Shown: positions 2,508 through 37,609 of the stretch, piece by piece
How positions within the stretch are numbered: position 1 is the first letter of the stretch
How the letters are laid out: each line of letters begins with the position of its first letter
Sequence record: MK962753.1
DNA: 64,000 nucleotides
Direction: 5' to 3' (one strand)
Source of the DNA: Shigella phage JK32
Notes under the pieces: generated by a model
Told to the model about the DNA's origin: nothing
What the model saw: the letters and a program-made list of their open reading frames with translations, nothing else
Databases searched by the model: none
Program-made: the position numbers and the translations under genes

Positions 2508-3017
2508 TCAAATAATTTTCACTGGAATACTATTAACAATCTTGTATTGTACTTGATTGTCAGACCCCCGCCACGGCTTCTTCGTTGGCATATCTTTAAT
2601 ATAACGCCCATCGATGAACATGTCAACTGATTCTACAATTTTTCTTTGCTCATCATTCAATTGGTCAAGGGTATAACCGGACCATAGCCAAATATCTTTA
2701 TTTGGCATCCATGATTTTACCTCATCGATGATCCGCTGTACACCCTTTAAATTGCGTTTATACAGTGGATCACCACCTAAGAATGTTAGCCCCTGAATAA
2801 AATCAGGTCTAAGCAGATCCAGAATCAATCCCATTGTATCATCGGTGAATGGTTCCCCGTTCTTAGGATTGAGTAGGCTAGCATTAAAGCAACCATCACA
2901 TGCGTGTGAACATCCGGTAACGTAAAGGGAGACTCTCACTCCCTCACCGTTAACCATATCACAATCTTTAATATCGGCATAGCGTAGTTTGCCGTATGTA
3001 TCAGAACTCATATTCAA
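2508..3017 (-). CDS. nrdG: Anaerobic ribonucleotide reductase activating protein (radical SAM)
   Basis: CSHACDGC cluster (CxxxCxxC) near N-terminus; size 169 aa; downstream of nrdD on same strand. Confidence 0.9.
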   Translation of the reverse strand: MNMSSDTYGKLRYADIKDCDMVNGEGVRVSLYVTGCSHACDGCFNASLLNPKNGEPFTDDTMGLILDLLRPDFIQGLTFLGGDPLYKRNLKGVQRIIDEVKSWMPNKDIWLWSGYTLDQLNDEQRKIVESVDMFIDGRYIKDMPTKKPWRGSDNQVQYKIVNSIPVKII

Positions 3018-4412: not shown

Positions 4413-6275
4413 TTACATGTGCTTAACGCGGTTTACCATCTCAGAGTGTTTCCCGTGGTTAAATGGACGCAGATCAACAGACCCAAGATATCCACTAACG
4501 CGACGGATAACATTCATCTTTTCCAGATTGTCATTGCCGCAATCAGGACAAACAAAACCAAACTCGGTCGCTCTCATTTCCTTAGTAGATCCGCATACAT
4601 GACATACATCAGAAGGAGTATTAACACCGAAGTAGTGCAATTTATCCATTGCATAATCTACTACGGTTTCAAGCCCTTTCAGGTTGTTTTTCATGTCTGG
4701 GAACTCAACATAAGAGATCATACCACCGGACGCCAGCCAGTGATAATCTTTCTCAAAGTCGATTTTCTCAAACGGTGTGACTTTCCGGTCTACGTCAAGG
4801 TGGAATGAGTTGGTGTACCAGTCTTTATCGGTAGCACCCTTAACAATACCAAATTGCTCTCGGTCCAGTCGATTAAATCGATAGCAAAGGCTTTCGGCTG
4901 GCGTACCGTAAAGACTAAACCCAAGTCCGGTTTCGTCCTTCCATTTTTCAGTATAATGACGCAAGATCTTAAGAATATGTTTACCGTATCGCTGCGCTTC
5001 TTCCGAATCAAACGGATGAACACCAAACAGGACGCTCAATACTTCATGTAAACCAATATATCCAAGCGAGATACTAGCGCGACCATCTTTCAGCACTTCC
5101 AAAATTTCATCGTTTTGATGGATACGGAAAAATGCACCTTCTGTATACAGCACCGGAGCAACATTGGCTTTAGCCCCTTTTAAAGCGTCTACGCGACTCA
5201 TCAGCGCATCAAAGCAAATAGGCATACGATTAGCCAGCTCTTGTTCGAATAGCTCAATTCTGCGCATTACAGACGCTTTACCAGCACGACGCGCGGCAAT
5301 AAGAGCAATACGCGGAAGATTCAGAGTCACAACACCTAAGTTATTACGTCCGTCTAATACTTCTTCGCCTTTCTCATTATGCCACACACCCAGGAAGCTA
5401 CGACAACCCATCGGGCTAACCGGAACACTAGATCCAGTGATACTACGGTTATTCTTCGCAGAGATATAATCAGGGTAAAGACGCTTACTAGAACATTCCA
5501 ATGCAAGTTGCTTAATGTCGTAGTTCGGATCTTCCGGTTTAAGGTTTAATCCTTCTTCTAAGAACATCACCAGCTTAGGAAACACCGGAGTGATACCATC
5601 TTTACCTAAACCTTTAGTTCGAACGTTCAGGATCGCTTTCTGAATCAGTTTTTCTTCCCAGCTAGTACCCATACCAAAGGTTAAAGTCACAAAAGGCGTT
5701 TGACCATTGGTAGAGAACAAAGTGTTGATCTCATATTCCAACGCCTGATATCCGTCTAACGTTTCTTTTTCTGTCTTCTCTTGTGCATAGAGAGTATCAG
5801 CTTTGATTCCGTAGGTTTCGGCATCAGCAAGGTGTTTATGATATGTTTTCTCAACGTATGGCGCTAAAACCTGATCAATGTTTGCTATGGTAGTTCCGCC
5901 ATATTGATGACTTGCCACCTGTGCGATAATTTGAGCGGTTACAGCACATGCAACACCGATTGATTTCGGACTTTCGATTTGTGCACTACCCAATTTAAAA
6001 CCATTCTCTAACATGTCTTTGAGATTAACAAGACAGCAGTTAGTAAACGGCATAGCGGGTGCATAATCCATATCATGATAATGAATATCACCGTCTACAT
6101 GCGCTTTATAGATGTGCTCAGGTAACACGGTTTTAGCAATCTGTTTAGACACAGCGCCAGCAATCAGATCTCGACGTGTCGGGAATGTTCGCGCGTCTTT
6201 GTTCGCGTTCTCTTTGCTTACTTCGTTTTCTTTACCCGTTGCGATCTCTGTAATGTCTTTGATTAGTTTTTCCAT
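4413..6275 (-). CDS. nrdD: Anaerobic ribonucleoside-triphosphate reductase (glycyl radical enzyme), uninterrupted
   Basis: 620 aa; C-terminal Zn-ribbon CPDCG and glycyl radical motif RVSGYLG; close match to recalled T4 NrdD. Confidence 0.95.
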   Translation of the reverse strand: MEKLIKDITEIATGKENEVSKENANKDARTFPTRRDLIAGAVSKQIAKTVLPEHIYKAHVDGDIHYHDMDYAPAMPFTNCCLVNLKDMLENGFKLGSAQIESPKSIGVACAVTAQIIAQVASHQYGGTTIANIDQVLAPYVEKTYHKHLADAETYGIKADTLYAQEKTEKETLDGYQALEYEINTLFSTNGQTPFVTLTFGMGTSWEEKLIQKAILNVRTKGLGKDGITPVFPKLVMFLEEGLNLKPEDPNYDIKQLALECSSKRLYPDYISAKNNRSITGSSVPVSPMGCRSFLGVWHNEKGEEVLDGRNNLGVVTLNLPRIALIAARRAGKASVMRRIELFEQELANRMPICFDALMSRVDALKGAKANVAPVLYTEGAFFRIHQNDEILEVLKDGRASISLGYIGLHEVLSVLFGVHPFDSEEAQRYGKHILKILRHYTEKWKDETGLGFSLYGTPAESLCYRFNRLDREQFGIVKGATDKDWYTNSFHLDVDRKVTPFEKIDFEKDYHWLASGGMISYVEFPDMKNNLKGLETVVDYAMDKLHYFGVNTPSDVCHVCGSTKEMRATEFGFVCPDCGNDNLEKMNVIRRVSGYLGSVDLRPFNHGKHSEMVNRVKHM

Positions 6276-17450: not shown

Positions 17451-19589
17451 TTAAGGATTTCGGCCAGGGTAATGCTTAAATCGACCGTAACCAGTTTCAA
17501 TGCTCATATCTCGTTGACGCACAATCGCCCAATAACCGTTGCAGGAATCTTGAAGATATAGATCCTTACCTTTTAGGAACTCATTAAAAATAGTGATCTG
17601 CCAATCATAATAGACCGCATCAGCAAGACTACCCATCCAACCGTGCGGATCTTCCATCAGTTCGACAAGTTCATCAATTACCCAATATGGACAAGGGCTA
17701 AATTTACCCTTACTAAAATCGCTGAACATAGTAACGATCTTGACTTCCGGTCGAGGCTGATCGGGAATATCTGGACGTTTGTTAACTACGACTTGCACAT
17801 ATTTTGTGTAGCCTACAATTTCACCTTCATCTAAGTTAGTGTTATTGTTTTTGTCGGCAAATGCAACAAATTTGTAAACACCAGAATCGTTTAATGTTGC
17901 ATTAGCTTTACGATATACCGGAACACTGGAATCTGCAATAGGTAATTTAATACCACTTTTACTAAATTCATAGGTCGGCACATAGTTAGATGGCGGTTTA
18001 ATCATGGTTGCTTCCAGCACCAACGGATCACCCTCAGTAATTTGCACCGGATGCGGACCGTCAAATTCCATATTAGGAATTACTTCAACTTTATAGGTTG
18101 CACGTCCTGCAATATCATATCCGGTATGCGCACTATGAGGATCTCGGCTAGGGCTATCGCGATATTCATGAGACCAGATACCATTATGTTCTTTATCCGC
18201 CGCATCAGTAATCTTATATTCTTTCGTTTCAATCGGCAATTCTGTTACAAGAACATCGTTTTTCAAAATTGCTAACGAACGAGTTTGAGTCGGGTCATTA
18301 CTTGCTGGCGGTTCTGGATCAACAATTTTAATAACAATAGGTTCCCCAACCTCAATACCGCTATAATCATGCTCGACGTCATAGATATCTAACATACGGC
18401 GATCATAAAATAATGGGCGAGAAGTTGGAGTTCTCTGCGGATCATCATCACGCGCAGGAGCTACCAACAATTGCAGGGCTACACTATTATCATATTGCAA
18501 TTTCTCAAGACTAATACGGTCATAACCAGGATCACCATATTTCTTGCTTTGTAATTGCGTACCACCTAACATCCACGTAAAGTAGACATTATTTGTTAAT
18601 AAACCATAATGTCGGTTCCATGAATTATCAACAGGGGAAACTGGCATATCAATACTAACAGAAGACCCAGAAGGATAACGAAATTCAATAGCAGAAAAAT
18701 CTCGGCTAAAAAATTCGTTTTCCTTGACGTTAACGCGGAATCGATGGCGCTGACCATCCAGATACGATTCACTACTACCAGGACCATTTTCAACCTTATA
18801 GGAACGAATACAAGCGACATAATCACCTGCATCTGCTTCGGTAGCATGTTTCGTCACATATAAAGTTTTATTCTTTGATTCATAAACCAAAGTACCATCG
18901 CCACGTTCCAGACGATAACGAACTATGGTATGTTCAGCGTCATTTGGGGCATCGTCTTCTACAGTATAATAGGCAGGTGCATATTTTTGTACATTGAATA
19001 CAGCTAAATTTTCTCGAATTGTTGCTGTAAACGGATATACAAATTTAACATCACCTGTTTCGTCGCTTAATTCCATTCGATAAAGACCGGAAAATTCAGG
19101 CCATGCGAATTTTGCAATTTTAAATTCACGATGATCCAATCCCAAATCACCATCCACGGAATCAACTAGACCATTATTATAATACAAGTCAACAGAGATA
19201 TTAGCAGGAATATTACTACGAAAAACAATTTTCGCTTTAAGTTCATCACCAATATTAAATGATGTCGGAGGATATACATGTTCAACATATGGATTATCAA
19301 ATAACTTAAATGTAAAGTTTTCCGTGCCAATATCGATAGAATCACCACTAAATGATGTGTCGCCTAGCGCATAACCTCGAACGTTTACAGACCATCCGGT
19401 AACATCGTCTTCTTTAACGGAATCCAATGTAAATGTCGGAGAGGCACTTGTTGCTATAATCTGGTCATTTTTCTTCCAGACATAACCTTTTTTCGGTTTT
19501 GTTGAATCAGGGCTTTCATCAACAATACAGCAGCTAAAATCGTGCGGCATCCAAATCATATTATTGACCGTGGTGTTTACTACTGCCAT
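17451..19589 (-). CDS. Large multi-domain protein with Ig-like repeats and a distinct C-terminal domain
   Basis: 712 aa; Ig-like motifs DAGDYVACI and DSGVYKFVA; no recognisable catalytic motif. Confidence 0.65.
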   Translation of the reverse strand: MAVVNTTVNNMIWMPHDFSCCIVDESPDSTKPKKGYVWKKNDQIIATSASPTFTLDSVKEDDVTGWSVNVRGYALGDTSFSGDSIDIGTENFTFKLFDNPYVEHVYPPTSFNIGDELKAKIVFRSNIPANISVDLYYNNGLVDSVDGDLGLDHREFKIAKFAWPEFSGLYRMELSDETGDVKFVYPFTATIRENLAVFNVQKYAPAYYTVEDDAPNDAEHTIVRYRLERGDGTLVYESKNKTLYVTKHATEADAGDYVACIRSYKVENGPGSSESYLDGQRHRFRVNVKENEFFSRDFSAIEFRYPSGSSVSIDMPVSPVDNSWNRHYGLLTNNVYFTWMLGGTQLQSKKYGDPGYDRISLEKLQYDNSVALQLLVAPARDDDPQRTPTSRPLFYDRRMLDIYDVEHDYSGIEVGEPIVIKIVDPEPPASNDPTQTRSLAILKNDVLVTELPIETKEYKITDAADKEHNGIWSHEYRDSPSRDPHSAHTGYDIAGRATYKVEVIPNMEFDGPHPVQITEGDPLVLEATMIKPPSNYVPTYEFSKSGIKLPIADSSVPVYRKANATLNDSGVYKFVAFADKNNNTNLDEGEIVGYTKYVQVVVNKRPDIPDQPRPEVKIVTMFSDFSKGKFSPCPYWVIDELVELMEDPHGWMGSLADAVYYDWQITIFNEFLKGKDLYLQDSCNGYWAIVRQRDMSIETGYGRFKHYPGRNP

Positions 19590-24433: not shown

Positions 24434-25132
24434 CTAACCACGGGTATAGTGTTCCAGAACAACTGTCAGATGAATATATTCTAATAGATCTTTCCAAAAG
24501 TCAACATCTGGTTCTTCCGGCATACCGTTTTTCTTTGCCTCTTCACGCGCGAGTTTAACACGTTCGTAGAGATCTTTCAATTCTTCCCGCACATTATCAA
24601 ATGTTCTTTCTCCTAACTTACACGCTAAAATAGAAGAACGTCGCGCGAGCGGGAATTGTAGATCACCAGTTTGATAGATTTCAAGTAGCTGATAACCAAC
24701 ACGCAGAGCATGAGAAAGATCTTTCCAGTTACTGAAATATTTTTCAGATTTGACTACCTGCTTTTTGAGATAACCAGACAAACCCCACATACCAACATGA
24801 TAGAATTTATCGCGATGTGTTCGGATGTATTCCCATTCTCTGGAGGATTCAATCAACATGTTACTAGGCGCGTGCACCATATCAATAGCGCCGATATCAC
24901 CTTTACATGCCAGATTGATAAACCGTTTTAGACTGAACATATTAACATCAATATCGTCTTTGGTGTTCTTGATACCTTGACCGCTAGTGCTTTGGTCATA
25001 GTGTTCTTTCATCGATCCTAAGATAATTTCTTTCGCAGTCGGAACAAAGATACCACGATAATCTTTATCTGAATTTTCAGTATCAAGACCGTATAAGTGA
25101 GATCCGAAGACCATTTTAACCATTGTATGCAT
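24434..25132 (-). CDS. Predicted nucleotidyltransferase (Pol-beta superfamily)
   Basis: FGSHLYGLDTENSDKDYRGIF fits GS-x(9-13)-DxD signature. Confidence 0.6.
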   Translation of the reverse strand: MHTMVKMVFGSHLYGLDTENSDKDYRGIFVPTAKEIILGSMKEHYDQSTSGQGIKNTKDDIDVNMFSLKRFINLACKGDIGAIDMVHAPSNMLIESSREWEYIRTHRDKFYHVGMWGLSGYLKKQVVKSEKYFSNWKDLSHALRVGYQLLEIYQTGDLQFPLARRSSILACKLGERTFDNVREELKDLYERVKLAREEAKKNGMPEEPDVDFWKDLLEYIHLTVVLEHYTRG

Positions 25133-25150: not shown

Positions 25151-25744
25151 TTAAACGTATTCAGCAACAACATTATGTTTAAAATTACCGCTCATTTTTG
25201 GATTTGGATTTTTCAATCGACTATGTATTAAATTTTTGTTGTATCCGGTTGCTTTAGACGCTTCGCCAATACTTTGATAAACAACACCATTAACACGAAT
25301 CGGACGAGACTTATTAAACAGTTTATTCAATCCGGCATCATATGCATGGTTTTGGTTTTCTTGTCTCGTTGCGATCTCAAGATTCCAAACACAATTACAA
25401 GATTTTACCCCACTTTTATGATTAATTTCAAGCCCTTCACAATCACCTATAAAGTGTTCAGCGACTAGTCTATGAATATAGCGATATTTCTTAGTTTCCC
25501 CGTCATGCAAGCATACATTATAATAACCATCACCAGCGCGTTTAGGTCGGAGTAGTTTACCTTTAACACGTTTTATAGTAGGGAACTCACCAAATTGATT
25601 TCGCTGGACAAACGAAATCTCGCGGTCTAATGAACGGATTCGACCATAGTTAGACACTTGATAAAAACTTTCATAGCCTTTAATTGGCTTCCATATCTCA
25701 GGGATTTCTACACCATCAATAACAACAAGTTTAAATTCTTCCAT
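25151..25744 (-). CDS. HNH homing endonuclease (NUMOD4 + HNH)
   Basis: YQVSNYGRIRS (NUMOD4-like); HRLVAEHF ... INHKSG ... NLEIATRQEN (HNH). Confidence 0.75.
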   Translation of the reverse strand: MEEFKLVVIDGVEIPEIWKPIKGYESFYQVSNYGRIRSLDREISFVQRNQFGEFPTIKRVKGKLLRPKRAGDGYYNVCLHDGETKKYRYIHRLVAEHFIGDCEGLEINHKSGVKSCNCVWNLEIATRQENQNHAYDAGLNKLFNKSRPIRVNGVVYQSIGEASKATGYNKNLIHSRLKNPNPKMSGNFKHNVVAEYV

Positions 25745-25756
25745 ATTTCACCTCAT

Positions 25757-25789
25757 AAAAAAATAAAGCCAACCCTTTCGGATTGGCTT
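25757..25789 (-). terminator. Rho-independent terminator after grcA-like gene
   Basis: Hairpin agccaaccctttcggattggct with flanking A/T runs. Confidence 0.55.
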
Positions 25790-25794
25790 GTCGA

Positions 25795-26208
25795 TTACAT
25801 AGATTCCGTAAAGGTACGGGTGATGATATCAAGTTGTTGTTCGCGTGTCAAGGCGTTGAATCGGGTAGCATAACCACTGATTCTAATAGTCAGTTGTGGG
25901 TATTTTTCAGGATTTTCTAACGCATCAAGAAGAGTTTCCCGACGCAGCACGTTCGCGTTGAGATGATGACCAGCGTTACTATTTACCCCGTTATCAATTG
26001 CTACAGGACGGAAGCTAGTTGTGTGTAGTGCCAGCGAATCGACGTCTTCTGCGGTGATCACATGGTCTTCTGCGAAAGTTTTACTAACAATTACTTTAGC
26101 GCCGATCAGTGCTTTCGGTTCGGATACCAGAATCATAGGCGCGAAATGTCCACCGATAATAGTACCTTTATGCTCACCTTTCATGATTTGAATTGCTTTA
26201 AATTCCAT
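25795..26208 (-). CDS. grcA: Autonomous glycyl radical cofactor (GrcA/YfiD-like)
   Basis: [56 protein letters not shown] is near-collinear with recalled E. coli GrcA C-terminus. Confidence 0.85.
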
Positions 26209-26343
26209 AATTCACCTCTTATAGATCAGGACGTTCGTCATTAACTTTTCCAACCAAAACCCCATAGAGTTTATCAGGTTGGACTTTACGATTCTTATTG
26301 ATTGTAGCACGGAATCGACGAGCTACGCTATCTTTATTTTTCA

Positions 26344-26835
26344 TTAGTTGATACCTAAGCCAATGAAAATAGGTTGGTCTTCTACATTACCCATTCCAAC
26401 ACTACGTCGATTTAACTCTAAAAACTGCAATACGCTGTCAGTAAATCCGCGCATGGTAGTATCTAGGATAAAGATTGTTTTGTCAAGCCGACGACCTCGC
26501 CATGTAATCGGATTCAGGAAAGTTCGGATCGACGTACAATCTACATTTGAAATATTGACATTTTCACCACGACCGCGATCTCGGATCGTTTTGACATGTT
26601 CCCGCGTTGTCGAAACGATAAAGACACTATAGCCTTTTCGCGTATAATGGTCATATAACTTGATTGTAGCGTCTGTATGCCCTGTTTGACGCCCTAAATT
26701 GATTGAGACGATGGAATCTAGGTCATCAGCAAAATTGCGTCGCTTACGGCGTTCTATGATGCCATCTACGGCAGAAACACATGCAGCATAAATCAAATCT
26801 TTACTTTCTAATTTTACATCAATATTCATTGTCAA
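26344..26835 (-). CDS. Hypothetical protein
   Basis: ORF track 163 aa; degenerate P-loop-like GRQTGHT. Confidence 0.5.
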   Translation of the reverse strand: MTMNIDVKLESKDLIYAACVSAVDGIIERRKRRNFADDLDSIVSINLGRQTGHTDATIKLYDHYTRKGYSVFIVSTTREHVKTIRDRGRGENVNISNVDCTSIRTFLNPITWRGRRLDKTIFILDTTMRGFTDSVLQFLELNRRSVGMGNVEDQPIFIGLGIN

Positions 26836-26891
26836 GTCTCCAGTGAACGGGGAGAGATCCTTAGATTGTCTCCCCGTTGATGGTTAATATT

Positions 26892-27467
26892 TTATTTTGG
26901 ATCTGGGAAATTCAATAGAGCATATTCTCCATAAAATTTCCTAGCTGCATTATCATAAGCGATTGCAGCTTCGATTTCTGTGTCATATTGTCCAAGAACA
27001 TGTCTTTGTAGGTTGACCATTATACTAGCTCTCCATTTCTTACGCAAATCCTTCCTGTTACACTTACTAACACCCTTATACACACTAGAAAACTTTTTAG
27101 ACTTCTTCTTTCTATTATGTTGATTTTGCGCGTCGGTTGCCTCCCTAAGATTTGGAGGATTGTTATTAGCAGGATTACCGTCAATATGATCAATTAATCT
27201 AACTTGCGTCCCATGTTCTAGAAACCAAACAACCCTATGCACGAATAGATGAACTCTAGGAAGACCGTCATCTCTACTATGCCAAAATCTAAGATGACCA
27301 TCTTTATTTGTTCTGACTTTAACTAAATCGCCGTGTTTATATCTACTCCCTAATGGTCGTCCTTTGATAGCTTTACTATCGACTCTATAATATAAGATAC
27401 CCTCTATATGAGCATATCTAAGTTTTATCTCGTTTTGTAGGGATTCATCCCAATATTTAAAGGTCAT
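26892..27467 (-). CDS. HNH homing endonuclease with AP2-type DNA-binding domain
   Basis: IDHIDGNPANNNPPNLREAT...NQHN (HNH); C-terminal YKGVS...WRASI...AAIAYDNAA (AP2-like). Confidence 0.75.
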   Translation of the reverse strand: MTFKYWDESLQNEIKLRYAHIEGILYYRVDSKAIKGRPLGSRYKHGDLVKVRTNKDGHLRFWHSRDDGLPRVHLFVHRVVWFLEHGTQVRLIDHIDGNPANNNPPNLREATDAQNQHNRKKKSKKFSSVYKGVSKCNRKDLRKKWRASIMVNLQRHVLGQYDTEIEAAIAYDNAARKFYGEYALLNFPDPK

Positions 27468-27481
27468 TTTATAATCCTCAC

Positions 27482-27510
27482 AAAGCCAGCGATTAAGCTG
27501 GCTTTATTTT
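27482..27510. terminator. Hairpin terminator-like element between HEG and endolysin
   Basis: aaagccagcgattaagctggcttt followed by ATTTT. Confidence 0.4.
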
Positions 27511-27512
27511 AG

Positions 27513-27902
27513 TTATACCGGGTCTGGATATACCTTTTTATCGAGTTCCATATGCGGTCCGTCTTTAAAAGTAACCCAATCAACACCGCAGATAACAGGA
27601 ACACCCAATTCTCGACCAGCTTGTTTAAATGCATCAGCGATCATGCGGTAATATTTCATGTTCCATGTATCCTTATCTTTAGGATACGCTACAACGTCAA
27701 CCGCGAAACCGTGAAGATGACGAGATTTCATAGTCTTAGATTTACCTTCCGCAACATATTTCTTTTGCGTTTCTAGACTACGCACACCTTCCGTAATACC
27801 AAAATCGACCGGAGTCAGTTCTAATGCACGATGAACGACTTTTACTAGGTCTGGATGTACACCAACAAGCCGATCTTTGCTTCTTTGAGATAATTTAAAC
27901 AT
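27513..27902 (-). CDS. Peptidoglycan peptidase (M15 family), probable endolysin
   Basis: Zn-binding pattern around SRHLHGFAVDV and GPHMEL; 129 aa; sits at the e-gene position. Confidence 0.7.
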   Translation of the reverse strand: MFKLSQRSKDRLVGVHPDLVKVVHRALELTPVDFGITEGVRSLETQKKYVAEGKSKTMKSRHLHGFAVDVVAYPKDKDTWNMKYYRMIADAFKQAGRELGVPVICGVDWVTFKDGPHMELDKKVYPDPV

Positions 27903-28390: not shown

Positions 28391-28533
28391 GATGCACCAC
28401 TAATCAGACAACCCGCGCCAAGCGATTCCCACCAGATCAGGGAAGCGACAATAACACCGAATCCCCAGACTACCGCAATCACAACATAGGCAAAGATCGC
28501 CCAAAACATATATTTGTTCATAATAAACCCCAT
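28342..28533 (-). CDS. Small membrane protein
   Basis: Two TM helices. Confidence 0.4.
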   Translation of the reverse strand: MGFIMNKYMFWAIFAYVVIAVVWGFGVIVASLIWWESLGAGCLISGASCLITGVIVGFLIWED

Positions 28534-28706
28534 TCACCAAACAAATAAGAAAAAAGCCATATCAACAGAAACGAGGCAATTGATCCGGCAAGCAAAATGA
28601 TATTAGAGAATCCGCTGTTTATCCAGTCGATCAAACAGAATACACCAGTATAGAAGCATAATCCCATTACAAAGCATACTATAAGCAACCATAGATAAAA
28701 CGCCAT
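28518..28706 (-). CDS. Small membrane protein (5' end lies inside the duplicated segment)
   Basis: MAFYLWLLIVCFVMGLCFYTG...; start codon copy repeated at 28970-28972. Confidence 0.45.
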   Translation of the reverse strand: MAFYLWLLIVCFVMGLCFYTGVFCLIDWINSGFSNIILLAGSIASFLLIWLFSYLFGEWGLL

Positions 28707-29123
28707 AGAAAGCCCTCTAGTGAGCTAATTTAGTGCGGGTAGTACATTACCCTACCCGCATTGTTAATCATCGCAGAGCGTGTTCTAGAACGATTCCACA
28801 CCAACCGCTAACCACACCCAAACACACAGCAACAAGCAGATTCATTCGGTCTTTTGAGCAAAATGATATTAGAGAATCCGCTGTTTATCCAGTCGATCAA
28901 ACAGAATACACCAGTATAGAAGCATAATCCCATTACAAAGCATACTATAAGCAACCATAGATAAAACGCCATAGAAAGCCCTCTAGTGAGCTAATTTAGT
29001 GCGGGTAGTACATTACCCTACCCGCATTGTTAATCATCGCAGAGCGTGTTCTAGAACGATTCCACACCAACCGCTAACCACACCCAAACACACAGCAACA
29101 AGCAGATTCATTCGGTCTTTTGG
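28592..29123. repeat. Perfect tandem direct duplication, 2 x 266 bp
   Basis: 28592-28857 reads identically to 28858-29123 by eye; contains hairpin gcgggtag/ctacccgc. Confidence 0.85.
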
Positions 29124-36283: not shown

Positions 36284-36293
36284 TGTATGTAGT

Positions 36294-37121
36294 TTAAAAC
36301 AGTTTCCAGACTTTTCGAGCGTCGTATTTCTTGCCTTTTGACATAAACTGATAAACGGGCATCATTATGATATTGTGCCAGTCCTTCGGGGCGATCTCGA
36401 TCATCTTGGTTTGGATGTGTCCTGGTAAGTATGCTTTAATCATGTGGTCGCTTCCACGCATACCTTTTACATCGCTCCATTTGATTTTTAAGCGCGTTTT
36501 ATTGCTTAGGGTAGGTGTAGTAGCATATTGCTTTAAAAGTGCCTCTAAGAACTGTTGACGAGCTTTAGGTGGGGCATAGTGCAAGTTCAAGCCTAGCATA
36601 ATCGTATTACCCGCTTTACTCTTCCCTTCCCCTAGACAGATAATCAAAGGAAATCGATCGTAGAAAGGCAAAGAATCCTTATATTTTGGGTCATATGCAT
36701 AGGTATAGATCCGACCTACTTGTGGTTTTACTACCTGATGGCCTTTTACTCCCGCCTTAATAGTCTTCATAAACCATTCTTGCGATTTCTCTTTAGGCCG
36801 ACTCACTTTAGCCGTTTTGGTAAGAGACGCACGAAAATCATTAATAAGCATCATTGCTCGTTGTTGCTTGTTTAATCCTTTTGGGCTTTTACCCTTTAAC
36901 CGTGCAATCTCAATTGCTTGTTTAATCTCTCCTGAATAACGAGACATACTCTTAGTGAATGTTGTATAGGGTATTCCTTTTTCTTGAGCAAAGGCTTTAG
37001 CTGTCATGCCTTTGGCTTTTGCTTTAGAGAACTCTACGCCCAGATCAATCCACTGTTTAGCCTTTCTTTGTTGTGGCGTTTGCTTAACGTCTTCTTCTGT
37101 GATTATTTCAAATACGCTCAT
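36294..37121 (-). CDS. 2: DNA end protector protein gp2
   Basis: 275 aa vs T4 gp2 274 aa; synteny. Confidence 0.8.
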   Translation of the reverse strand: MSVFEIITEEDVKQTPQQRKAKQWIDLGVEFSKAKAKGMTAKAFAQEKGIPYTTFTKSMSRYSGEIKQAIEIARLKGKSPKGLNKQQRAMMLINDFRASLTKTAKVSRPKEKSQEWFMKTIKAGVKGHQVVKPQVGRIYTYAYDPKYKDSLPFYDRFPLIICLGEGKSKAGNTIMLGLNLHYAPPKARQQFLEALLKQYATTPTLSNKTRLKIKWSDVKGMRGSDHMIKAYLPGHIQTKMIEIAPKDWHNIIMMPVYQFMSKGKKYDARKVWKLF

Positions 37122-37132
37122 AATATTATCCT

Positions 37133-37609
37133 CTATTTGTTAAGCCCTTTAAAACCGAATACTTTCTTTAATGCATGTTCGGTTATGATCTTAAACTCCA
37201 TGTTATGCTTTTGGCATAAATCAACCGCAGCTTTCCATTTTTCTGTGTTCACTGTGTAGGTGTAACACTCTTGCATATATCTTTGCTTAGTCTTAGTGGT
37301 TATTCTTTTTGGCTTTTGTGGTGGTATTGTCTCTTTTGCTGGTTTTACTTCCCATAAAAACTCTTTGCCATCTACAAACTTCACCCAAAAATCCATATGA
37401 TATTTTCTGGATCGTTTATCTGCGCTAGACCAGTAAGGTATAATCACACATTCAGAGTTCCATTTAGCCACGCTAGGACTACGATCCAAAAATTTCATTA
37501 TGTGCAACTCCCAGCTTGACCGATACGTGATCTTGTGCAAGTTATTCCCTTTGTACTTCTCAGGATTTTCCGGCTTATACTTGCCCTTGTAAGTGTTAGA
37601 TCCTCCCAT
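37133..37609 (-). CDS. 4: Head completion protein gp4 (nuclease-like fold)
   Basis: YKGKYKPENPEKYKGN...RSSWEL...MDFWVKF...EVKP pattern as in recalled T4 gp4; synteny. Confidence 0.8.
   Translation of the reverse strand: MGGSNTYKGKYKPENPEKYKGNNLHKITYRSSWELHIMKFLDRSPSVAKWNSECVIIPYWSSADKRSRKYHMDFWVKFVDGKEFLWEVKPAKETIPPQKPKRITTKTKQRYMQECYTYTVNTEKWKAAVDLCQKHNMEFKIITEHALKKVFGFKGLNK

Follow-up and report, generated by a model that had tools for sequence, protein, structure and literature searches.

Small stand-alone glycyl radical proteins have been described in Escherichia coli (GrcA/YfiD) and in phage T4 (Y06I, which we take to be the product of vs.6). According to the account of Wagner et al. 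(2001) given in PMC8683613, both YfiD and Y06I are activated by PFL-AE and restore oxygen-cleaved PFL in vitro. The T4 homing endonucleases SegF, SegG and MobE are encoded between genes, cleave in a flanking conserved gene and are associated with co-conversion (PMC2988022), and Petrov et al. (2010, PMC2993671) have tallied putative HNH-AP2 homing endonuclease genes for phages including RB49 and JSE. In addition, RB49-type phages shuffle cassettes via promoter-early stem-loop (PeSL) elements, whose stem-loops have the form GGGG...CCCC (PMC2839356).

The window, i.e., the whole 64-kb stretch of DNA that was analysed, belongs to an RB49-like (Krischvirus) T4-type coliphage. In the nucleotide search, Krischvirus genomes were the best matches to a 3.6-kb locus query, for example pEJ01 (97.5% identity, 100% coverage), and 58 records matched. 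The four ORFs of the original prediction were recovered at the same coordinates, and all features of the locus given below lie on the minus strand. We consider it likely that the vs.6-vs.8 locus of this phage combines a GrcA-type spare-part protein with two unrelated homing endonuclease genes (HEG-A and HEG-B), which entered independently of each other by intronless homing.

As originally predicted, the ORF at 25795-26208 (vs.6) encodes a GrcA/YfiD-type autonomous glycyl radical ('spare-part') protein of 137 aa. It matched Pfam Gly_radical (6e-15, 56.1 bits; cut-off 22.2) and phrog_1209 (1.2e-46). In the solved-structure search, GrcA (6owr; E=1.6e-27, 99 bits) was followed by the C-terminus of PflB (E=6.9e-25, 91 bits; residues 77-137 aligned to 699-759), and the next glycyl radical enzymes reached 1.7e-9 only, the best matches all being PFL-class. 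The likeness had been placed in the C-terminal half of the protein. It is real there, with 44/61 of the last 61 residues identical to GrcA and 45/61 identical to PflB, but the GrcA alignment extends over residues 37-137 (GrcA 29-127), indicating that homology spans most of the protein. Judged by sequence comparison, this ORF is a full-length GrcA homologue, with a similarity far above chance. Its scores against three NCBIfam models were below the cut-offs (TIGR04365, 113.7 bits versus 170, missing the equivalog threshold for GrcA; GrcA3, 97.5 versus 158; GrcA2, 87.4 versus 145) because the N-terminal part is divergent. The RISGYATRF motif is present, and its radical glycine, Gly112 (codon 25873-25875), is invariant in 13/13 Krischvirus alleles, T4-type vs.6, GrcA and PflB. 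The loop around it reads RISGYAT here and RVSGYAV in the host GrcA, the V-to-I and V-to-T changes being conservative.

The name vs.6 is used in Phi1, JSE and RB49, and homologues are encoded in about 1,580 phage records, many of which label them GrcA. The label 'HNH homing endonuclease' on the vs.6 gene of ZCEC14 was rejected as a mis-annotation, the gene being a normal 363-nt vs.6. Over the last 62 residues, the T4-type vs.6 protein, annotated as GrcA, matches E. coli GrcA at every position, and the Phi1 allele agrees with GrcA at 56/61 of the last 61. The allele of this phage differs from the host GrcA at 17/61 C-terminal positions, two of which adjoin the radical glycine, so that its recognition by PflA and its fit to PflB are assumed.

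By analogy with T4 Y06I and E. coli GrcA, we infer that the vs.6 protein would rescue host PflB during infection. The host PflA would install the radical on Gly112, and the radicalised protein would then dock onto PflB whose radical domain had been cut off by oxygen and restore the conversion of pyruvate to acetyl-CoA and formate. Fermentative energy metabolism might thereby be kept running in infection under the microaerobic conditions of the gut.

Alternatively, vs.6 might be a spare radical domain for the phage's own NrdD, activated by the phage NrdG, instead of serving host PflB. The same window indeed encodes NrdD (4413-6275; PF13597, 8.4e-176) and a NrdG-type activase (2508-3017; Fer4_12, 2.4e-43), as had been noted. 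A 2006 genome paper suggested a role in nucleotide metabolism for vs.6 on the strength of the shared Pfam domain (PMC1524935), and reviews allow that other glycyl radical enzymes might have spare parts too (PMC8683613). Nevertheless, we regard this function as very unlikely. A BLASTP comparison of vs.6 with the NrdD of the window gave no significant similarity (best E=0.098), the shared residues being limited to an R-x-SGY pentapeptide, whereas GrcA and PflB share 72-74% of residues with the vs.6 radical domain. Moreover, PFL and PFL-AE were the in vitro partners of T4 Y06I, as recounted in PMC8683613, and vs.6 and nrdD/nrdG are about 20 kb apart (~19.5 kb for NrdD and ~22.8 kb for NrdG), which places both of the latter outside the vs.6 locus. 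The anaerobic-metabolism module originally proposed for vs.6 with NrdD and NrdG did not hold up; all that links them is their relation to glycyl radicals and their presence in one phage.

Host PflB is thus kept as the probable partner of vs.6, and two further ORFs complete the block. A conserved 41-aa ORF between vs.8 and vs.6 (26219-26344; phrog_13848, 3.3e-30) is annotated at the same position in Phi1, JSE, pEJ01 and the other relatives examined. The 163-aa ORF at 26344-26835, described as unknown in the original prediction, belongs to no Pfam family and is a homologue of vs.8 (phrog_1488, 3.9e-37), as the gene is named in Phi1 and JSE. Its true start is likely the ATG at 26829. It carries a Walker-A-like motif, GRQTGHT in this phage corresponding to GRQSGKST of the T4-type protein. 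No significant match of vs.8 was found in Pfam, NCBIfam or the PDB sequences, and a six-member profile gave sub-threshold hits only, to P-loop NTPases (terminase ATPase and SRP54, E 0.26-0.7). An exhaustive search of 1.84 billion proteins found relatives in 5 representative clusters, and a word-index search found 3 close ones. AlphaFold2 modelling of vs.8 reached a mean pLDDT of 42.9, too low for the model to be used.

The flanking genes proved to be of the HNH homing-endonuclease type, as proposed. HEG-A (25151-25744, 197 aa) is a free-standing NUMOD4-HNH gene in the vs.6/nrdC.11 spacer (site A), with matches to NUMOD4 (1.8e-18), HNH_3 (2.5e-10) and phrog_59 (1.2e-40). HEG-B (26892-27467, 191 aa) is a free-standing HNH-AP2 gene in the endolysin/vs.8 spacer, with matches to HNH_3 (2.6e-10), phrog_99 (1.4e-43) and AP2 (2.1e-5, 25.2 bits, under Pfam's 33.3-bit cut-off). 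Neither ORF is interrupted in this phage, the HNH motif being complete in each, and both insertions are precise and intergenic, leaving the adjoining genes and terminators intact. That of HEG-A has the vs.6 terminator on one side and the nrdC.11 start on the other. The conserved downstream flank of site A is a nrdC.11-type nucleotidyltransferase gene (24434-25132; Pfam RlaP, 5.6e-14; phrog_388, 1e-78), annotated as nrdC.11 in Phi1 and JSE and 95-100% identical across relatives as far as the HEG-A junction.

Among the 58 related records, 8, MIZ4 among them, carry HEG-A (95.5-98.3% nucleotide identity), and the vs.6/nrdC.11 spacer is contiguous, with no endonuclease gene, in 45. Site A has three kinds of occupants, namely HEG-A, a JSE-type 176-aa gene and a phiS variant with 75% protein identity to the JSE type. 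The next-best relatives of HEG-A, 41-44% identical, were found in phages of Oenococcus, Lactococcus and Bacillus. HEG-B is present in 13/58 records, at 99-100% nucleotide identity in genomes whose backbone is 93-98% identical, and absent from 45/58. Its paralogues (44-49% identical) occupy other loci in Krischvirus and Klebsiella T4-like phages. The pEJ01 copy is split into two ORFs by a frameshift, suggesting that some HEG-B copies are decaying.

These distributions bear on the possibility of a composite mobile module, in which vs.6, the 41-aa ORF and vs.8 form a cassette carried by both bracketing endonucleases together. HEG-A and HEG-B do bracket the block (25151-27467), they are the sole HNH-type genes among the 160 ORFs of the window, and any site-A endonuclease gene and HEG-B co-occurred slightly more often than expected (odds ratio 4.7, p=0.05; p=0.10 without a duplicate record). 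However, vs.6, the 41-aa ORF and vs.8 hold the same position in 58/58 Krischvirus records, with endonuclease genes present or absent, and 32 of these records as tallied from the hit tables, for example Phi1, have neither endonuclease gene. Identity across the interior, from vs.8 through the 41-aa ORF to the 5' half of vs.6, is 93-100% with or without them, and the vs.8-to-vs.6 order is common to Krischvirus and to T4-type phages, where it reads vs.8-vs.7-vs.6. Furthermore, HEG-A and HEG-B occur together in only 2/58 records (Fisher p=1.0), so that the two endonuclease genes do not travel as a pair. On these comparative data the composite module appears largely refuted, and we hold it to be extremely improbable. 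Of the original proposal that the endonucleases moved a module, the vs.6-vs.8 cassette falls away, whereas the 3' half of vs.6, with the radical domain, apparently moves along with the endonuclease gene downstream.

Independent entry of the two genes remains the preferred reading, and each of them is associated with sharp divergence at the 3' end of the gene just upstream. In the allele comparison, the tract linked to HEG-A covers the 3' ~210 nt of vs.6 (25795-26004), including the glycyl radical domain. Codons 1-55 differ from all relatives by 0.6-1.8% of nucleotides, whereas codons 56-137 differ from the Phi1 and JSE alleles by ~33%, with 28-32 codons silently changed and 22-26 amino-acid changes. 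Between alleles, the radical domain showed a dN of 0.23-0.25 and saturated dS, indicating purifying selection. Krischvirus holds at least five vs.6 alleles, 20-35% apart in nucleotide sequence, and the 3' allele of this phage (at least 80% nucleotide identity) is confined to the 8 HEG-A genomes. A diverged 3' allele was found in 13/13 records with site A occupied versus 3/45 with site A empty (Fisher p=1.8e-10, related genomes being treated as independent and phylogeny uncorrected in our Fisher tests of endonuclease-allele association). Three site-A-empty records carry the JSE-type allele without an endonuclease gene. Nested partial JSE-type tracts occur in empty-site genomes, reaching ~nt 283 in kvi, ~nt 298 in G2248 and the gene end in FL15. 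As to the source of the HEG-A-linked allele, recent capture from the host was rejected (69% DNA identity to E. coli pflB, with none closer in 5,426 E. coli genomes), and phage records other than the 8 HEG-A genomes reached about 73% nucleotide identity at most.

The corresponding tract at HEG-B is the last ~80 nt (27513-27593) of the endolysin gene (27513-27902; Peptidase_M15_4, Pfam 4.8e-8; phrog_465, 5.5e-63). Among nine genomes compared, endolysin nt 1-300 differ by 0-3.3%, whereas nt 301-390 differ by 34-36% between genomes with and without HEG-B and by 0-1 nt among those with it. A third endonuclease-gene difference from Phi1 is ORF130.1 of that phage, which is absent from the window at 36287/36303, abutting a diverged patch at 36291-37591.

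The linked diverged ends fit intronless homing with co-conversion, a known mechanism. HEG-A and HEG-B would each have entered its spacer independently. In a co-infection, the endonuclease would cut the genome lacking its gene, and repair of the break from the carrier genome would copy the gene plus adjacent DNA. In this way the gene just upstream of each endonuclease gene would acquire a foreign, strongly diverged 3' end that stays linked to it, and this diverged end probably also protects the carrier from its own enzyme. The linkage is what was observed; from it, cleavage and homing by the two enzymes are inferred.

Three stem-loops were predicted at the locus, and they are mutually dissimilar. 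Directly after the vs.6 stop lies an intrinsic terminator (25766-25789; fold -16.7 kcal/mol, z=-2.98), a hairpin with a T-run consisting of a 10-bp stem plus TATTTTTTTA. The Shine-Dalgarno sequence and start codon of HEG-A come after it, and G37-3 and G5211 have a terminator annotated at the corresponding place. Upstream of vs.8, a GGGGAGA...TCTCCCC stem-loop (26848-26885; fold -21.0 kcal/mol, z=-4.19) is kept in 9/9 aligned genomes, with HEG-B present or absent. The third stem-loop, after the endolysin stop (27482-27505; fold -17.2 kcal/mol, z=-4.97), lies within the HEG-B cassette, a segment missing from Phi1, MIZ4, G37-3 and 011D4. Sigma-70-like promoter matches at the locus were not enriched (16 versus 13.0 +/- 3.6 in shuffled sequence). 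The T4 late promoter consensus TATAAATA was absent from the locus and no more frequent in the window than in shuffled sequence.

Such elements, together with the mosaic nature of these genomes, raise the question of whether the endonuclease genes are simply carried along, passively or as dead copies, their presence or absence and the diverged ends having arisen from homologous or PeSL-mediated shuffling and not from homing. Fourteen hyper-divergent patches were found against Phi1 in 48 kb, most without an endonuclease gene nearby, and cassette shuffling by PeSL elements is documented for RB49-type phages. There is also a GGGG...CCCC stem-loop between HEG-B and vs.8, some genomes with an empty site A have hybrid vs.6 alleles, and one HEG-B copy is frameshifted. 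However, the upstream junctions fall in the coding parts of vs.6 (nt ~205-250) and of the endolysin gene (nt ~310) and not at the stem-loops, and diverged alleles mark every occupied site A and few empty ones. Moreover, 3/3 endonuclease-gene differences from Phi1 abut a diverged patch though the patches make up ~7% of the sequence, HEG-B is near-identical across diverged backbones, and neither ORF has decayed in this phage. We therefore think it unlikely that the genes are mere passengers, although general mosaic recombination could contribute to the diverged gene ends.

Intronless homing being favoured, a further step would be that the radical-domain region of vs.6 is itself the homing target, each event swapping in a foreign, cleavage-resistant version, so that the endonuclease genes would drive allelic diversity. 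We put this forward tentatively, as possible rather than probable. The partial tracts of kvi, G2248 and FL15 might then represent aborted homing, in which the recipient was immunised without transfer of the endonuclease gene. To our knowledge, vs.6, the GrcA homologue, has not previously been reported as a homing target. If true, the variety of alleles of a metabolic 'spare-part' protein would be the work of selfish endonucleases.

The arrangement is of an ordinary, documented kind, a known phage GrcA gene with endonuclease genes in the adjoining spacers, and it has little significance beyond correct annotation: the ORF should be labelled vs.6, with a spare-part protein like GrcA as its product, and the two flanking genes as free-standing homing endonuclease genes. 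The only detail added is the linkage of each endonuclease gene to the diverged gene end upstream, which illustrates how the ends of conserved genes may be remodelled by homing endonucleases next to them. The locus might also illustrate how T4-type coliphages would sustain host fermentative metabolism under microaerobic conditions. Additionally, the vs.6 alleles, 44-56/61 identical to the host GrcA and all apparently under purifying selection, form a ready set of variants for the residues recognised by PflA and PflB, which could be useful.

Compared with the described spare-part proteins, the vs.6 product resembles T4 Y06I and E. coli GrcA/YfiD (6OWR, NMR) in being a small stand-alone protein of ~14-15 kDa. 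GrcA is collinear with its residues 37-137, the radical glycine lies in R-[VI]-S-G-Y-A in both, and the vs.8 ... vs.6 neighbourhood is the same in T4-type phages. Unlike those proteins, it has an N-terminal part of ~36 residues specific to Krischvirus, and its radical domain has diverged further from GrcA (44/61) than the T4-type protein, which is identical over the last 62 residues.

Compared with PeSL cassettes of RB49 and Phi1 (Arbiol et al. 2010), the locus likewise has stable bordering stem-loops and a variable genome part, and the stem-loop upstream of vs.8 resembles that of a PeSL cassette. Unlike in such cassettes, the upstream junctions are inside coding sequence, the cargo encodes its own nuclease, and no pair of repeated PeSLs surrounds HEG-A or HEG-B.

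The T4 homing endonuclease genes provide closer parallels. Like SegF, SegG and MobE, HEG-A and HEG-B are located between conserved genes and occur sporadically among close relatives, and a linked diverged flank in the adjacent conserved gene, such as co-conversion after cutting at a distance would leave, is found here at vs.6 and endolysin. Both also resemble free-standing T4 homing endonucleases in fusing an HNH nuclease core to a separate DNA-binding module. HEG-A differs from the T4 examples in lacking close relatives among T4-like phages, and the outside sequences most like it (41-44%) come from phages of Gram-positive hosts; T4 MobD adjoins nrdC.11, as site A does here. For HEG-B, the HNH-AP2 gene of JSE (Petrov et al. 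2010, PMC2993671) has the same HNH-plus-AP2 architecture, with 99.5% protein identity and 100% nucleotide identity over the first 570/576 bases. HEG-B shows no material difference from the HNH-AP2 genes of RB16, RB43, RB49 and JSE, to which the linked divergence of the endolysin 3' end is an added observation.

All genes between 24.4 and 27.9 kb of the window lie on the minus strand. Listed in the direction of transcription, these are an M15-family endolysin gene (27902-27513), an HNH plus AP2 endonuclease ORF of 191 aa (HEG-B, 27467-26892), the 163-aa ORF vs.8 (26835-26344), a 41-aa ORF (26344-26219), the 137-aa glycyl-radical ORF vs.6 (26208-25795), a NUMOD4-HNH endonuclease ORF of 197 aa (HEG-A, 25744-25151) and the nucleotidyltransferase gene nrdC.11 (25132-24434). 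The domain assignments (endolysin, HEG-B, vs.6, HEG-A and nrdC.11) are those of Pfam and PHROGs, and the names vs.8, vs.6 and nrdC.11 were taken from Krischvirus relatives. The 3.6-kb segment matched 58 phage records, all from the genus Krischvirus (RB49/Phi1/JSE-like T4-type coliphages), and the closest was vB_ESM-pEJ01 (97.5% identity over the full query). The coordinates, domain calls and RISGYATRF motif of the original prediction were all correct on re-examination, confirming a GrcA-type ORF between two endonuclease genes. Arrangements of this kind were already known, and near-identical sequences are publicly available.

The radical glycine of vs.6 is residue 112 (codon 25873-25875). Among all solved structures, the top match was E. 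coli GrcA (6owr, E=1.6e-27; residues 37-137 against 29-127), followed by the C-terminus of the pyruvate formate-lyase (PFL) PflB (E=6.9e-25; 77-137 against 699-759), and the remaining glycyl radical enzymes reached 1.7e-9 or worse. The last 61 residues share 44 identities with GrcA and 45 with PflB, whereas similarity to the phage's own NrdD (4413-6275) was not significant (lowest E 0.098). This comparison clearly places vs.6, as a predicted protein, in the PFL/GrcA class; the GrcA-type reading thus held, and the proposed tie of the locus to NrdD and NrdG was not supported. Against the NCBIfam equivalog model for GrcA, vs.6 scored 113.7 bits and fell short of the 170-bit cut-off for membership, because its N-terminal third is lineage-specific. 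The extent of host GrcA mimicry is strikingly different between phage genera: in the T4-type phage ime09 (L009 3002-3364), the last 62 residues of vs.6 are identical to E. coli GrcA, and Krischvirus alleles match it at 44-56 of the last 61.

The local order vs.8-vs.7-vs.6 is common to T4-type phages, whose vs.6 carries the annotation "autonomous glycyl radical cofactor GrcA". The product of T4 vs.6 is presumably Y06I, and this annotation is consistent with that. The vs.6 of phage ZCEC14 (L010 2002-2364), a normal GrcA-like gene of 363 nt, is mislabelled 'HNH homing endonuclease'. According to the accounts of Wagner et al. 2001 in PMC8683613, a work also cited in PMC13450708, PFL activase installs a glycyl radical on T4 Y06I and on E. 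coli YfiD/GrcA, and both proteins reactivate oxygen-cleaved PFL. As early as 2006, vs.6 of T4-like phages, RB49 among them, was described as matching Gly_radical (PMC1524935). By tblastn, 1,580 phage records encode a homologue, and many of these are labelled GrcA; the records come from T4-like, Klebsiella T4-like and T5-like Salmonella phages, among others. Given these earlier reports and this distribution, phage genes for a GrcA homologue count as known and widespread.

The product of vs.8 is a member of phrog_1488, a small family confined to phages that has five representative clusters in a set of 1.84 billion proteins. Alignment of the family shows a Walker-A-like motif that reads GRQSGKST in T4-type vs.8 (L009 3698-4237) and GRQTGHT in the window, with histidine in place of the lysine in Krischvirus; next comes a hydrophobic strand (IFILD) whose last residue is Asp. 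All P-loop NTPase matches in profile searches were sub-threshold, and the structure model was unusable (pLDDT 42.9). Nothing beyond conserved adjacency links vs.8 mechanistically to vs.6.

Of the 58 records, 8 contain HEG-A DNA (95.5-98.3% identity) and 13 contain HEG-B (99-100%). They occurred together only in pEJ01 and FL04 and were not associated across the records (Fisher p=1.0); for any occupant of the vs.6/nrdC.11 spacer (site A) against HEG-B, p was 0.05-0.10. The pEJ01 copy of HEG-B (L001 3997-4571), split in annotation into ORFs of 129 and 447 nt and matching in two pieces, is probably frameshifted and decaying, whereas the window's copy is intact. The empty spacer of Phi1, used as query, was contiguous in 45 records. 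Four others carry at site A an unrelated JSE-type HNH gene (176 aa, 28% identical to HEG-A), and phiS carries a variant whose protein is 75% identical to the JSE type. Both insertions are precise: HEG-A separates the vs.6 terminator hairpin (25789-25766) from the nrdC.11 start, and HEG-B is bordered by a hairpin that follows the endolysin stop and by a GGGG...CCCC stem-loop preceding vs.8. HNH-AP2 homing endonuclease genes of RB49 and JSE, and their uneven spread among close relatives, were tabulated in 2010 (PMC2993671). Across all nine aligned genomes, whatever their endonuclease status, identity is 93-100% over vs.8, the 41-aa ORF and the 5' half of vs.6. Therefore, HEG-A and HEG-B are independent, sporadic insertions, and the vs.6-vs.8 block is core syntenic DNA that its neighbours do not carry as a cassette, contrary to the proposal of a module moved by the flanking endonucleases.

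The sole observation beyond annotation is the linkage of each endonuclease gene to sharp divergence at the 3' end of its directly upstream neighbour. Codons 1-55 of vs.6 differ by 0.6-1.8% of nucleotides between any two genomes, and codons 56-137 of the window's allele are about 33% divergent from those of Phi1 and JSE, with 28-32 silently changed codons, 22-26 amino-acid changes, dN of 0.23-0.25 and saturated dS. This radical-domain segment falls into at least five allele classes (Phi1 type, JSE type, phiS, HEG-A and a HEG-A variant in G37-3 and FL04), all with the glycine loop intact. A diverged allele was found in 13/13 records with site A occupied versus 3/45 with it empty (Fisher p=1.8e-10, records treated without correction for relatedness). 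Empty-site genomes contain nested JSE-type tracts with a common 5' boundary near nt 249; the tract of kvi stops at about nt 283 and that of G2248 at about nt 298, and that of FL15 runs to the gene end. Outside its eight carriers, no phage record exceeded about 73% nucleotide identity to the HEG-A-linked allele; for E. coli pflB the identity is 69%. Similarly, nt 1-300 of the endolysin gene differ by 0-3.3% among nine genomes, whereas nt 301-390 differ by 34-36% between genomes with and without HEG-B and by 0-1 nucleotide among those with it.

The HEG-A-linked 3' end also contains a near-consensus sigma-70 match (25823-25851, minus strand; TTGACA, 17 nt, TATCAT, extended -10 TG; 11/12 positions, by consensus match only), oriented through the vs.6 terminator towards HEG-A. 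By our reading of the alignment, the Phi1 and JSE alleles match more poorly there; sigma-70-type matches were not enriched over shuffled sequence. Transcriptionally upstream of the endolysin gene, a cluster of small membrane-protein ORFs contains a perfect 266-bp tandem duplication (28591-28856 and 28857-29122, 100% identical), either recent or an assembly artefact, through which the first 39 codons of ORF 28518-28706 recur in ORF 28808-28972. A 1.9-kb stretch (17656-19575) has no counterpart at the collinear Phi1 position; a 712-aa ORF without a Pfam match (17451-19589, minus strand) lies mostly within it.

Diverged gene ends could also reflect general genome mosaicism or cassette exchange at promoter/stem-loop (PeSL) elements, by which RB49-type phages shuffle cassettes (PMC2839356). 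The genome is generally mosaic: between the window and Phi1, 14 patches fall below 75% identity in 48 kb, most with no endonuclease gene nearby. However, the upstream junctions at this locus lie within coding sequence and not at stem-loops, which is evidence against PeSL exchange being the only cause. One such patch (36291-37591, 60-73% identity) adjoins the point (36287/36303) at which the window is without ORF130.1, an annotated 1,032-nt endonuclease gene beside gene 2 of Phi1 (L015 36926-37957), a third case of an endonuclease gene with a diverged flank.

Intronless homing would be expected to produce such a linkage of diverged ends to endonuclease genes, and from this pattern we infer homing itself. 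The endonuclease would cut within the adjacent conserved gene of a recipient, and repair would co-convert the interval from the cut to the endonuclease gene. Whether the radical-domain half of vs.6 is itself the homing target is rather doubtful; if so, selfish endonucleases would drive the allele turnover of vs.6, which would be of modest interest. Cleavage in a neighbouring gene with co-conversion is established for SegF, SegG and MobE of T4 (PMC2988022), and the present locus resembles these systems in pairing an endonuclease gene with a diverged flank in an adjacent conserved gene.
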